Positions 2,744-38,729 of a DNA stretch of 40,568 nt are shown here, piece after piece. The position numbers and the translations under genes were made by a program. Source of the DNA: a bacterium (lineage in GTDB: Bacteria; Zhuqueibacterota; Zhuqueibacteria; Zhuqueibacterales; Zhuqueibacteraceae); the NCBI GenBank assembly GCA_044869275.1, contig JBIOXB010000185.1:1-40568 (forward strand). Direction: 5' to 3'. The notes beneath the pieces are model-generated. The model was not told the DNA's origin. It was given only the letters and a program-made list of their open reading frames with translations, and made no database searches. How positions within the stretch are numbered: the first letter of the stretch is position 1; each line of letters opens with the position of its first letter.

Positions 2744-2819
2744 GCAGAGGGCATAGCGCATAGAGCATAGAGCATAGAGAGCACGCCATGCGCTCTGCGC
2801 CATGCCCTCCGCCCTCTGC
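2744..2819. repeat. Inverted heptamer-tandem hairpin (GCATAGA/GCAGAGG vs CCATGCG/CTCTGCG family)
   Basis: gcagagg gcatagc gcataga gcataga gcataga ... ccatgcg ctctgcg ccatgcc ctccgcc ctctgc; spans from the permease stop codon to the purine-rich RBS region of the AraC gene. Confidence 0.9.
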
Positions 2820-5260
2820 TATTCGTACCTCAACGCCTCCACCGGATTCCCCAGCGCCGCTTTGAGCGCTTGATAGCTGATGGTGAGCAAAGCAATGACC
2901 GCCGCAAGCGCGCCAGCCGCGATGAAAACCAGCCAGCCGATCTCGATGCGATAGGCAAAGCTTTGCAGCCATTTTTGCATGGCATAATAAGCCACAGGCG
3001 AGGCCAGCAACGTCGCCACCAGGACCAGCTTGGTGAAATCTTTCGACAGCAAGGCGATGATGCTGGCCACAGAAGCGCCAAGTACTTTGCGCACGCCGAT
3101 TTCTTTGGTGCGCTGCTCGGCCATAAAAGCCGACAATCCCAGCAAACCAATGCACGCGATCAAAATCGCAAGCGTGGCGGCCACACCGAAAATCTGCCCC
3201 ACGCGTTCGTCGCGTTGATACAAATTCTGCCACCACTCTCCGAGAAAATCAAGCTCAATGGGATTGACGCGGTCGAACTGTTCGTGCACTTTGGTGATGA
3301 ACGCGATGGTCTCCGGCACGTTCGCGGTGCTGATGCGCAGACTGAAATAATCGATGCCGTGCAGCGCGTGCCGGCCGCCTTTCGGCATCAAGCCCATGAC
3401 CAGTGGGCCGATTTGATCGTGCAAAGAGAGAAAGTGAAAATCTTTCACCACACCCACCACCTGCCCTTGGAATGGCCGGGCGGGCACGTGAATGAATTTG
3501 CCCAGCGGCGCGGCGCCGAAGAGCATGCGTGCGGCGGTTTCGTTGAGTAAAATAGCAGTGGAATCGGAGGCCAGCGCGCGCGAAAAATTTCTGCCGGCGA
3601 CGAGATCGACTTCATAGGTTTTCAAAAAGTCTTCGTCAATGCCGTTGAAAGACATGGTCTGGGTTTCGATATCCGGCGCGCCTTCTTTCACCACTTGAAT
3701 TTGGCGGAAGGATTTCCAATCACCGGGCACGCGCGAAGAAACCGTCACGCTGCGCACCGCGGCCTCGCGCAGGAATTCGGTTTTGACGGTGGTGAAATTG
3801 GCTTGCACATCATCGTGGTTGATGTCGATCACCACGAGTTGTTCCTGGTTGAAGCCAAGCTGTTTGTGGCGCACGTATTCCAATTGTCTGTAGACCACGA
3901 GCGTGGCGACGATCATAATGAGGGAAAGCGCGAATTGGGCTACCACCAAGCCGCGTCGCAAACGCGATGCCCTCGTTCCGGCACGCACGGCACCTTTCAT
4001 CACCGTGATCGGCTGGAATCTCGACAAGTAGAACGCCGGATAACTGCCGGAAATGAACCCGAGCAACAGCGCGATGGCAAGCAACCCCGCAACCACGGCC
4101 CAGCCGCTGGAGAAATCGAGCGCCAGCTTCTTGCCGGCGAGCGCGTTGAACCCTGGCAACGCCAGCTCGACGAGAACCAGCGCCACAATCAATGCAATAA
4201 AGGTGATGCCGAGCGATTCACTGAAGAATTGCCCGATCAATTGCCGCTGGTCCGCGCCGATGACTTTGCGCATGCCAACTTCTTTGGCGCGGTGCATGGC
4301 GCGGGCGGTAGCCAGATTCATATAATTAATGCAGGCGATCAATGCGATGAACGCGGCAATCAGCGCGAAAATGTAAACGTAGCCCAGTTCACCTTCGTTC
4401 TTATTTCTTTCGGCTGAAATATGCGCGGAATAAAAATGAATATCGCGGAGCGGCTGCAGATAGAGTGTCCTCTGCGCCGAGGTTTCCGGCCCGCGATATT
4501 TTTTGCTGAAATCGGCAAACTTGGTTTCCAGTCCGGCGCGTTGTTTGTCGCTGTCGAGCACCACGTAAGTCGCCGCCCCAAAGCCGCTGGGACTCCACGA
4601 TTGCAGCGCTTGTTGCATATCCGGGAAAGCGTCCAGGGTGGAAAGCGAAACCAGCATGCCGAAATCCAAATGAGAATTGTGGGGAATGTCGCGCAGCACT
4701 CCGGTTACGACGAAATCGCCTTTGCCGAATTCCGGAAAATCTTCAGCCTCGAGCTGTAGCGCTTTGCCGAGCGGATTCTCATTGCCGAAAAATCGCTGCG
4801 CCGTGGTCTCGGTCAAAACGACCGAACGCGGCGCCGCGAGTGCGGTTTGTGGATCGCCTTGTTGCAGGGGAAAATCGAAAATGTTGAAGAAACTCGGCTC
4901 TGAGAAAAAGTAATCACGAACAATGTGCCGGCCTTCACCTTGCTTGACGGTCAGCCGCCAGCCGATGAAAAAGCGCACGGCCTCGACGACTTCCGGGAAA
5001 TCATTCTTCAGAGCCGGCGCCAGCGGCGGCACGGTGAAAGCCGCGTGGAGTTCGCCTTCGTTGGTGCTGCGTTTTTCCACGATACGAAAAATGCGATCGG
5101 CTTTCGCATGAAAAGCATCGAAGCGCAATTCATCCTGCACGTGCAGCAGAATCAAAATGCAGCACGCCATGCCGATGGCCAGGCCGAAAATGTTGATGAA
5201 AGAATAGTTTTTGTGCTTGAGAAAATTTCTCAGTGCGATCTTGAGGTAGTTTTTGAGCAT
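2819..5260 (-). CDS. MacB/FtsX-like ABC transporter permease (duplicated-domain, ~800 aa), paralog 1
   Basis: MLKNYLKIALRN start, IACINYMNLATAR..RAKEVGMRKV, QRTKEIGVRKVLGAS, C-terminal NPVEALRYE. Start trimmed to 5260. Confidence 0.93.
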   Translation of the reverse strand: MLKNYLKIALRNFLKHKNYSFINIFGLAIGMACCILILLHVQDELRFDAFHAKADRIFRIVEKRSTNEGELHAAFTVPPLAPALKNDFPEVVEAVRFFIGWRLTVKQGEGRHIVRDYFFSEPSFFNIFDFPLQQGDPQTALAAPRSVVLTETTAQRFFGNENPLGKALQLEAEDFPEFGKGDFVVTGVLRDIPHNSHLDFGMLVSLSTLDAFPDMQQALQSWSPSGFGAATYVVLDSDKQRAGLETKFADFSKKYRGPETSAQRTLYLQPLRDIHFYSAHISAERNKNEGELGYVYIFALIAAFIALIACINYMNLATARAMHRAKEVGMRKVIGADQRQLIGQFFSESLGITFIALIVALVLVELALPGFNALAGKKLALDFSSGWAVVAGLLAIALLLGFISGSYPAFYLSRFQPITVMKGAVRAGTRASRLRRGLVVAQFALSLIMIVATLVVYRQLEYVRHKQLGFNQEQLVVIDINHDDVQANFTTVKTEFLREAAVRSVTVSSRVPGDWKSFRQIQVVKEGAPDIETQTMSFNGIDEDFLKTYEVDLVAGRNFSRALASDSTAILLNETAARMLFGAAPLGKFIHVPARPFQGQVVGVVKDFHFLSLHDQIGPLVMGLMPKGGRHALHGIDYFSLRISTANVPETIAFITKVHEQFDRVNPIELDFLGEWWQNLYQRDERVGQIFGVAATLAILIACIGLLGLSAFMAEQRTKEIGVRKVLGASVASIIALLSKDFTKLVLVATLLASPVAYYAMQKWLQSFAYRIEIGWLVFIAAGALAAVIALLTISYQALKAALGNPVEALRYE

Positions 5261-5270
5261 GGCTTTTTCC

Positions 5271-5780
5271 TTGGCAAAGCGCATGGAGCATGGCGCATAG
5301 TTGCAAAAGACAAAGCTCCAAGTGCAAGCGCATCGCAATTGATTAATCAGTTTTCAGGGTTCGCTTGAAATTCGTGATCCGGCGCGACAAATGCTCGAAT
5401 GCTTCGAGAAGGGCGCTTTCTGTTTTCTCGTCGAGCAGTTTTCTACGAGATAGAATGATCACTATGTTGGCGTTCTCGAACGTTGATCGCCTGGCAATAT
5501 CCAAGAAACGAGCAAATTCTTTAGCCGAAGGACCGCCCGAGCCTTCAGCGATATTGTTCGACATGCTCATGCCCGCGCTCCGTACCTGCTCCGCGAAGCG
5601 ATAGAGATGTCGCTGCTCGAGTTTGTCGGCTATGTCAAAGAGCTTGTCCCCCAGCTCAATGGCCATTTGCCAAATCTCAAGATCTTGGAATCTAAACTTT
5701 GCCATAATCACACCTCCCATTTGTGTTTATAATGTTTGCGCCATGCGCTTTGCACCATGCGCTCTGCACCATGCGCCATG
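5271..5780 (-). mobile_element. Putative cassette: complementary heptamer-repeat arms enclosing a four-helix-bundle gene
   Basis: Arm 5736-5780 (ccatgcg ctttgca ccatgcg ctctgca...) is complementary to arm 5274-5300 (gcaaagc gcatgga gcatggc gcatag). An empty homolog lies at 11025-11126. Mobility is inferred, not shown. Confidence 0.55.
5343..5705 (-). CDS. Four-helix-bundle protein (23S rRNA intervening-sequence protein / TIGR02436-like, Avd-related fold)
   Basis: MAKFRFQDLEIWQMAIEL...EQVRSAGMSMSNNIAEGSG...EFARFLDIARRSTFE matches the family signature (F.dL..Wq, Q.rraa.S...NIAEG, F.rfL.iAr.S..E); SD GGAGGTG upstream of ATG 5705. Confidence 0.92.
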   Translation of the reverse strand: MAKFRFQDLEIWQMAIELGDKLFDIADKLEQRHLYRFAEQVRSAGMSMSNNIAEGSGGPSAKEFARFLDIARRSTFENANIVIILSRRKLLDEKTESALLEAFEHLSRRITNFKRTLKTD

Positions 5781-37755: not shown

Positions 37756-38589
37756 TCAGGACAAAAACTTGCGCGACACCGCGGCGATTTCGAGCGCCTG
37801 CGCCAGCAAATCTTCCAGCTGGTGCAACGGCCACTGGCTCGCGGCATCGCATTTGGCCTCGGCAGGGTTGGGATGCGATTCGATGAACAAGGCCTCGCAA
37901 CCCGCGGCGACCGCAGCGCGGGTCAACGCGGGCACGAATTTCGGCTTGCCGCCGCGCGGATCGGAAGAGGGCAAGCCATACACGCGAATCGAATGTGTGG
38001 GATCGAACACCACGGGACAGCCGATTTCGCGCAGGGCCACCAGCGCGCGCATATCGACCACCAAATTGTGATAACCGAAGCAGGCACCGCGTTCGGTCAG
38101 AAAAATGTTTTGATTGCCCGCGCGCTCGATTTTAGCGACGACGTTGCGCATGTCTTCGGGATCGAGAAACTGGCCCTTCTTCACGTTCACCACGCGGCCG
38201 GTCTTGGCGACCGCAAGCGCCAGTGTGGTTTGCATGCACAAATACGCCGGAATTTGAATCACATCGAGCACCTCGGCGCAGGCCTCGGCGTCGTGGGTAT
38301 CATGAATATCCGAGAGCACGGGAATTTTGAACTGCTCTTTAATGCGGCGCAACATGGCCAGGCCGTTTTTCAATCCCGGGCCCTGATAGCTCGTTTCGGT
38401 GGAACGATTGTCTTTCAAATAAGAAGACTTGAAAATCAGCGGTATGCGCAGCTTGTCCGCAATTTTGCAGATGCCTTCCGCGGCCATATGCATGGTTTTT
38501 TCATCTTCAATCACACACGGCCCGCAAATGAGCACGAGCGGATGGCCGCCGCCCATTTTGATTTTGCCGATTTCGATGGTACGCGTCAT
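37756..38589 (-). CDS. kdsA: KDO-8-phosphate synthase
   Basis: GPCVIE, FKSSYLKDNRS, QIPAYLC, NVKKGQF, ERGACFGYHNLVVD, FDPTHS; start trimmed to MTRTIE. Confidence 0.93.
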   Translation of the reverse strand: MTRTIEIGKIKMGGGHPLVLICGPCVIEDEKTMHMAAEGICKIADKLRIPLIFKSSYLKDNRSTETSYQGPGLKNGLAMLRRIKEQFKIPVLSDIHDTHDAEACAEVLDVIQIPAYLCMQTTLALAVAKTGRVVNVKKGQFLDPEDMRNVVAKIERAGNQNIFLTERGACFGYHNLVVDMRALVALREIGCPVVFDPTHSIRVYGLPSSDPRGGKPKFVPALTRAAVAAGCEALFIESHPNPAEAKCDAASQWPLHQLEDLLAQALEIAAVSRKFLS

Positions 38590-38618
38590 AAATACAGTCC
38601 TGAAATTTTCACTCAATC

Positions 38619-38729
38619 GCAAGGCGCAAGGCGCAAGGCGCGGAGGGCAGAGGGCATAGCGCATAGCGAAACTGCCCTTTGCTATGCCCTCTGCGCTATG
38701 CCCTCCGCGCCACGCCCTCCGCGCCGTGC
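38619..38729. repeat. Inverted heptamer hairpin (GCATAGC/GCAAGGC family) overlapping the pyrG 3' end
   Basis: gcaaggc x3 gcggagg gcagagg gcatagc gcatagc ... ctatgcc ctctgcg ctatgcc ctccgcg ccacgcc ctccgcg ccgtgc. Confidence 0.9.

Follow-up and report, generated by a model that had tools for sequence, protein, structure and literature searches.

The 40,568-nucleotide stretch analyzed here, referred to as the window, is contig C185 (JBIOXB010000185.1) of a Zhuqueibacteraceae genome (GenBank assembly GCA_044869275.1, designated G000) with an assembly size of 6.67 Mb, a GC content of 55%, and a completeness of 94%. Its genes, almost all on the minus strand, comprise tandem ADOP-type permease genes followed by the core genes argF, hslU, hslV, rpoN, lptB/A/C, kdsD, kdsA, and pyrG. 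The junctions between them hold hairpins built from short tandem repeats, in which an array of one unit is followed by an array of its reverse complement. Two of these arrays, at 5271 and 5736, are the arms on either side of a single four-helix-bundle (FHB) gene, with 22 of 31 positions matching. The hairpins probably represent small mobile cassettes that lack their gene; a minority of the hairpins probably spread as part of miniature versions of an unnamed insertion sequence (IS). This reading draws on the architecture and polarity of the arms, the match of repeat units to protein clades and cargo, state changes at orthologous junctions, deletion products, and passenger copies. Other genomes carry G numbers, with G001 being a relative in the same genus.

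All arrays listed in an earlier, sequence-only reading of the window lie where it placed them, and the stems it gave at 13557 (25/25) and 10700 (22/23) are both exact. When 19 pieces are folded and compared with dinucleotide shuffles, 12 reach z ≤ −2.7 (2744, 10687, 11025, 13557, 19558, 21757, 24193, 27193, 29194, 30728, 31398, and 38619). Single arms are found at 14046 and 35556, and degenerate pieces, with z between −0.6 and −1.7, at 8210, 16515, and 13936.

Abundance, geometry, and placement of the hairpins

The hairpins are real, number about 400 genome-wide, and exceed chance expectation. A stem score of at least 12 is reached in 438 of 752 array regions of G000; because 36 of 300 array-free spacers also pass, about 400 is the fair count. 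Strong arrays (score of at least 20) are nearly limited to periods 7 (222 arrays) and 8 (114) plus multiples, compared to none at period 5, four at period 6, and one at period 9. Period-7 arrays are intergenic in 562 of 628 cases, although the genome is 84% coding (5,209 genes called with a simple in-house model, which underlies all genome-wide statistics). An inverted partner lies within 100 nt of 498 of the 952 arrays, compared to a direct partner for 42. When nothing but the unit pattern is used to define arms, the order is unit-then-complement in 92 pairs and the reverse in none. Independent slippage would yield both orders, so this polarity supports the earlier claim that the hairpins are not products of simple slippage.

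Most placed elements (374 of 421) sit between co-directional genes, and 18 are found between divergent genes, versus 425 of 3426 junctions in the background. This scarcity is compatible with either a transcription-linked function or tolerance. The sequence-only reading also observed that several elements begin at the base after a stop codon. This holds for some families (20/30 for GCATAGC and 23/53 for TGGATTGA, with 0/29 for TTACACG) but not overall, where 73 of 300 elements start at a stop versus 80 expected from uniform placement, a null with little force in tight spacers. The idea that the elements target stop codons in general is therefore rejected. Among the examples originally given, 2744 and 5271–5780 do start after a stop, whereas the gene sequence preceding 13557 is an orphan 3′ fragment and not an intact gene.

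The pyrG junction illustrates how such an appearance can arise. PyrG ends in AGK followed by a stop in three relatives, while in G000 and G001 the reading frame continues into the repeat and stops within it. The native end has been replaced by the arm, and the element appears to hug the stop because the arm itself supplies it. The elements thus also rewrite protein ends.

More than 10 unrelated unit families make up the arms. Identity with repetitive extragenic palindromes or bacterial interspersed mosaic elements (REP/BIME) was rejected since the arms are tandem arrays of these many families, with no single conserved short palindrome per family.

Cargo genes, orthologous junctions, and a probable insertion-sequence route

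Two gene families are found between such arms, FHB and GxxExxY, with 10 and 16 matches in G000, respectively. GxxExxY proteins are presumably PD-(D/E)XK-type nucleases. Across 31 related genomes, 109 of 143 FHB matches (those omitted being mostly weaker) and 34 GxxExxY loci taken from 78 strong matches were analyzed. Inverted arms flank 78/109 FHB and 29/34 GxxExxY loci, as opposed to 16/575 host genes of similar size; the corresponding swapped-pair nulls are 7/325 and 10/132. The two families differ in repeat length. FHB genes are paired with 7/8-mers (best period 7 in 70 loci and 8 in 23, together 93/109) and GxxExxY genes mostly with 9/10-mers (best period 9 in 13 loci and 10 in 6, together 19/34, with none detected in 11).

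Repeat units cluster by clade on a 99-row FHB tree, from which 10 short sequences were dropped, and the unit is shared with the nearest cross-genus protein in 19 of 60 cases (shuffled null mean 1.8, maximum 7). The proposal that unit sequence tracks cargo clade is thereby upheld. Pairs with different flanking genes share the unit in 27/74 cases at 50% protein identity or above and in 11/1537 below, a comparison whose weight for the cassette reading is reduced by many flanks of only ~300 nt and by the non-independence of kin. The result shows co-travel of arm and gene, not binding as such. The clade-to-unit match offers ready-made cognate and non-cognate protein–repeat pairs.

Six of the 7/8-mer families in the window have a cognate FHB gene in G000. 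The filled cassette of the window has its 5′ arm directly after the stop at 5781, its 3′ arm ends at the next ribosome-binding site, and its FHB protein is related to the Xanthomonas pentamer 2GSC. The element at 11025 aligns to it as an internal deletion that retains non-repeat inner segments from each side of the FHB gene. Flanking arms, this deletion product, and the cognate families all support the earlier suggestion that the hairpins are footprints of a cassette system linked to FHB/GxxExxY genes.

Two features of the cargo genes themselves may be added. GGGG or GGGAGG lies upstream of 46/99 FHB starts (L030–L149 and G000) versus 4% of 3,329 G000 host genes, a figure inflated by a start choice that favored such G-rich ribosome-binding-site words. 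Double-domain GxxExxY genes of ~270 aa occur in G000 (C235, C203, and C94) and G001 (L047–L050), several with 9-mer arms upstream.

Orthologous junctions show four states (filled, truncated, empty, and absent) as well as replacement of one family by another. At rpoN–hslV, compared across 29 loci, the 8-mer family of the window is present in G000, G001, G007, G010, and G013; a different 7-mer family occurs as an empty element in G016 and around a 5′-truncated FHB gene in G018; and the spacers of G014, G006, G009, and G015 are short and plain. A GCATAGC cassette filled in G001 (L034) is empty at the orthologous G000 junction (C152), an FHB gene full in G001 is internally deleted in G000, and an empty 8-mer element of G000 corresponds to a GxxExxY cassette in G001. 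Comparison within the genus (G000 versus G001) shows the same family with rewritten units at pyrG–kdsA, rpoN–hslV, hslV–hslU, and hslU–argF. Behind pyrG, three lineages have three families.

A second route is represented by the unit at 24153–24286. This unit ends sharply in non-repeat sequence and is missing at the orthologous G001 site; dozens of its relatives are dispersed, one of them nested inside a GCATAGC hairpin. Its ends also bracket several 9/10-mer families. In 2 of 50 metagenome hits, which are near-identical copies, an element with a single open reading frame (ORF) of ~510 aa has the right-end motif as its 5′ end. Variants of the ends occur on IS relatives in G002, G014, and G009, and G002 holds a hairpin-bearing miniature with both ends. 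No autonomous element with the exact 24153 ends was found in G000; a search with the left-end pattern gave one match in G001 and one unrelated-looking match in the genome contigs. The full IS copy in G000 (C10:44–1648) encodes a distant 534-aa ORF (25% identity) and carries 9-mer arms in its leader. Its ends differ from those at 24153 and are found in identical form at four places (C10 and the contig ends of C85, C98, and C132), and this multicopy IS has probably been active recently.

The passenger route points to an unnamed IS family whose protein matches no Pfam or NCBIfam family and has at least 7,997 relatives. This protein has a conserved tyrosine (Y316 in the alignment), and its structural model (pLDDT 85.5) has a TBP-like N-terminal part (Z 8.8) and a C-terminal winged helix. 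The top Foldseek probabilities, 0.96 to 4CIJ and 0.93 to 4CWE, belong to weak matches (E 3e-3 to 7e-3, TM 0.2) to rolling-circle initiators, which are Rep_trans proteins with a TBP-like fold; the model weakly suggests a Rep_trans-like protein. By strict pattern, IS ends are found at 34 of 438 hairpins versus 4 of 2,000 random sites. With so few hairpins affected, the passenger route accounts for a minority. The hypothesis of one generating mechanism is accordingly too simple, as there are at least two routes: gene deletion from a filled cassette and copying in miniature copies of the unnamed IS.

The units at 24153–24286 and 21739–21872 resemble MITEs (miniature inverted-repeat transposable elements) in their sharp ends, dispersed copies, and ends shared with a long coding element. 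Unlike MITEs, they lack terminal inverted repeats (left and right ends are unrelated except for a short direct core), and their partner protein belongs to no Pfam or NCBIfam family. No constant target duplication is apparent, with 3–4 equal bases on both sides in 9/20 copies read by eye. The likeness is limited to a minority of hairpins. An integron-cassette (attC) reading of the ~130-bp unit found no support, as the 94% complete genome contains no integron integrase match (TIGR02249) above the cut-off and no inverse core is seen by eye.

Mechanism and competing explanations

The proposed cassette consists of a repeat arm, a ribosome-binding site, an FHB or GxxExxY gene, and an inverted repeat arm, with each protein clade having its own unit. 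A filled cassette would land at a gene junction, and where it lands in the last codons, its 7- or 8-base units can supply a new stop, giving the apparent start at a stop observed for pyrG. An internal deletion would then remove the gene and leave the paired arms. The empty elements would persist through the genus as tolerated passengers rather than selected RNA signals, while slippage rewrites the number and sequence of their units. A minority would be copied as passengers in miniature copies of the unnamed IS, with its predicted Rep_trans-like protein.

For the insertion step, a tentative DNA-level model treats the arms as inverted arrays of putative sites bound by the protein that the cassette encodes. 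This protein would bring the two ends together, and either host recombination or the GxxExxY nuclease would make the strand breaks. Such arrays of DNA sites agree better than an RNA stem with the strand symmetry of the mismatches, the fixed polarity, and the clade-specific units. The sequence-only reading had also considered one structure-specific reader; this is not supported, because units co-vary with protein clades, a pattern that many sequence-specific partners would fit better. A broader extension, which we consider doubtful, would make FHB and GxxExxY proteins sequence-specific readers of their own unit that mobilize transposase-free micro-cassettes, the 23S rRNA intervening sequence (IVS) being one such cassette landed in rRNA and the bacterial excess of 7-base repeats being largely their debris, amplified by a very large Rep_trans-fold IS family. 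The cassette reading itself links three subjects in one testable system: why bacteria have so many heptamer repeats, what two large orphan protein families do, and where ORF-bearing rRNA intervening sequences come from.

Several observations weigh against the cassette origin. Empty elements (~400) exceed the 10 FHB and 16 GxxExxY matches more than tenfold, coding remnants are kept in only a few of them, and many may have spread already gene-less by another route. IS ends are detected at none of the TGGATTGA, GATCGAG, ATTGACA, and TTACACG elements. No cognate gene for CAAAACT, GCAAA[GC]A, or GGGAGTGA was found in G000, and orthologous comparison revealed neither a clean pre-insertion site nor a target duplication for a filled cassette. 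The match between unit and clade is also expected from plain co-inheritance of arm and gene, and retention of families at the same G000/G001 junctions is also explicable by selection. Unrelated small genes stand behind arms in G004 and G010 as well (L156, L157, and L159); these lie behind single arms at lpxL–lptC and after pyrG and are XisI-like and nucleotidyltransferase-like by eye. Lastly, the 8-mer families lean toward G-U mismatches (140/108 and 46/22) and may have an RNA role.

If the stems were selected in transcripts, their mismatches would be expected to lean toward G-U on the sense strand. The 374 co-directional empty elements have 633 G-U versus 647 A-C mismatches and the 77 filled stems 148 versus 143, while terminator-like control hairpins (a small set, n = 57) have 24 versus 11, all counts being of positions and not events. 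RNA-level selection of the stems is thus unsupported overall, and the earlier suggestion of a selected RNA-processing signal is not supported either, as the control shows the G-U excess that the elements lack. Mirroring of unit variants between arms, put forward as a sign of maintained or templated pairing, is present at 13557 and 10700 and is small overall (0.67 versus 0.63; 57/91) without preselection for pairing. A first estimate of 17.1 versus 14.3 was inflated by choosing good stems, and strong arm covariation is therefore rejected.

These counts bear on the best-surviving alternative, an unlikely one, in which the hairpins are IVS-like RNA elements: RNase III would excise the stems from mRNA, the FHB protein, as an Avd-like pentamer, would bind the RNA, and a reverse transcriptase (RT) acting in trans would reinsert it. 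Precedents exist. The 23S rRNA IVS of Coxiella burnetii has an S23p ORF within terminal inverted repeats, variable tandem heptamers before the ORF, and RNase III cutting (PMC4990558), and a related pentamer, Avd, binds RNA along with an RT (bioRxiv 2023.10.23.563531). The predominance of elements between co-directional genes and their scarcity between divergent ones would suit this scheme, and the genome has three RT matches. However, the sense-strand G-U excess is absent from empty and filled stems alike, a diversity-generating retroelement (DGR) and an RT-cas1-cas2 operon account for two of the three RTs, and none lies beside an armed FHB gene in the stretches inspected.

Even less likely are domesticated intercistronic signals, through which one host factor would set mRNA processing or operon stoichiometry. 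The elements do occur in core operons, fold strongly, and retain their family at several G000/G001 junctions, and transcripts in Xanthomonas more often start or stop at G4-type repeats (PMC4692102). Nevertheless, relatives have short spacers without repeats at the same junctions, families swap, wobble bias is absent, arm covariation is weak, and more than 10 unrelated unit families are involved. Neutral slippage arrays, whose inverted partners would come from foldback template switching and where small genes would gather by chance, would account for the differing copy numbers and unit variants at orthologous sites, the modest self-over-cross arm match (p 0.004), and the strand-symmetric mismatches, which are compatible with DNA-level correction, but are very improbable in view of the 92:0 polarity, the restriction of periods to 7–10, the unit–clade and period–family matches, and the cassette-internal sequence retained by deletion derivatives. 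Slippage as an origin is contradicted by polarity and cargo matching; as a process that rewrites the arms, it is likely.

The cassette reading has parallels in systems that have been described separately. The filled copies (e.g., 5271–5780) share with the 23S rRNA IVS an S23p/FHB ORF between terminal inverted repeats, and the elements share end heptamers and a sporadic distribution. They differ by lying at mRNA junctions in hundreds of mostly gene-less copies with many unit families and a second cargo, GxxExxY. None of the elements is located inside a 23S rRNA gene, as their flanks are protein genes. In Xanthomonas, GGGAATC heptamer arrays (Rehm et al. 2015, PMC4692102) form convergent pairs between aligned genes, near or overlapping stops, and are likewise kept between species with length changes. 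They have one G-rich unit, read as a G-quadruplex, and the accessible part of that paper names no mobile-element association and no cargo gene. In Beggiatoaceae, Cyanobacteria, and Bacteroidetes, the TAACTGA direct repeats (MacGregor 2015, PMC4679880) are intergenic heptamers with a patchy distribution across phyla, and one orientation of the array has stops in all frames. In the available text they differ from the present elements in being, for the most part, single direct arrays that precede start codons; they are proposed to be regulator binding sites, and no transfer mechanism is given.

The Avd protein of DGRs (bioRxiv 10.1101/2023.10.23.563531) is a pentameric barrel that resembles S23 proteins and binds nucleic acid. 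The window FHB gene, unlike avd, has no adjacent RT or template repeat and sits between ADOP permease genes. A complete DGR is present in G000 at C184:1036–6051 (target gene, avd, template repeat, and RT), with no repeat arms seen around avd; an avd-like gene of G001 (L040) has heptamer arrays on each side; and the RT, cas1, and cas2 operon at C154:39414–41957 of G000 has repeat hairpins in both spacers. No paper was found that unites the arrays with FHB/GxxExxY cassettes or names the IS, most subscription papers and supplements being outside the search. The component parts have been published separately. The hairpins are well supported as empty forms of IVS-like cassettes outside rRNA.

Window elements and their neighbors

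The features of the window are compiled in Table 1. The rpoN–hslV junction has different families or none in other genera, and the dispersed unit at 21739 has five similar copies in G000 and many in G001.

Table 1. Repeat elements and cargo gene of the window, ordered by position.
Feature	Coordinates	Strand	Remarks
Empty GCATAGC element, 22/27 stem	2744..2819	-	Begins at stop of ADOP permease
Filled cassette	5271..5780	-	GCATAGC-family 5′ arm 5736-5780, FHB gene, 3′ arm 5271-5301
FHB gene, 120 aa	5343..5705	-	TIGR02436 E 8e-23, PF05635 E 3e-24, PDB 2GSC E 3e-8
Degenerate CAGTGAT element	8207..8272	-	Cognate FHB: internal deletion at G000 C177, full at G001 L030
Empty ACGTGAG element, 23/25 stem	10685..10756	-	Cognate FHB at G000 C98:9272
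Empty GCATAGC element	11024..11126	-	Alignment: internal deletion of filled cassette 5271-5780
Empty GCATAGC element, 25/25 stem	13557..13626	-	Follows orphan 3′ ADOP fragment
Degenerate 9-mer CACGGAT element (13936)	13843..13990	+	Preceded by decayed left end of unnamed IS family
Single GCATAGC 5′ arm	14043..14074	-	After stop codon; stacked remnants next
Degenerate CAGTGAT element	16514..16581	-	Behind aldehyde dehydrogenase gene; G001 version better preserved
Empty TTACACG element, 20/22 stem	19557..19610	-	Cognate FHB at G000 C208
Dispersed unit	21739..21872	+	9-mer GACAGGAT hairpin 21757-21828; left end matches 3′ end of unnamed-IS copy in G009
~130-bp MITE-like unit	24153..24286	+	CAAAACT hairpin 24193-24267 within non-repeat ends common to unnamed ~1.9-kb IS
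Short GGGAGTGA 8-mer element, 13/18 stem	27195..27258	.	Between convergent genes; cognate gene not found
Empty ATTGACA element at hslU–argF	29192..29263	-	Cognate FHB at G000 C53; G001 same family, units rewritten
Empty TTACACG element at hslV–hslU	30727..30770	-	G001 has same family; not seen in genus-g4 relatives
Empty TGGATTGA 8-mer element at rpoN–hslV, 37/45 stem	31394..31549	-	Cognate FHBs at C165, C174
Single 3′ arm, GCAAA[GC]A family	35555..35592	-	Upstream of lptC; G001 likewise single-armed
GCATAGC element at pyrG–kdsA, 40/52 stem	38619..38729	-	5′ arm translated as PyrG C-terminus, provides stop

Five of the six GCATAGC copies cannot be counted as independent, since they share a single tandem array of paralogous ADOP permease genes. 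This array (2819–16498) contains five full duplicated permease genes of the ADOP type and two orphan 3′ fragments (10757–11038 and ~13627–13660), with a repeat element at every junction, a layout that suggests recombination at the repeat elements. At 1411–1490 lies a REP-like hairpin of a different kind, with two copies of a 16-base unit and a 19/21 stem; similar sequence is found at 18 contig ends of G000. A multicopy insertion sequence begins at the contig end (40443–40568) and matches contig ends in G000 and G001.

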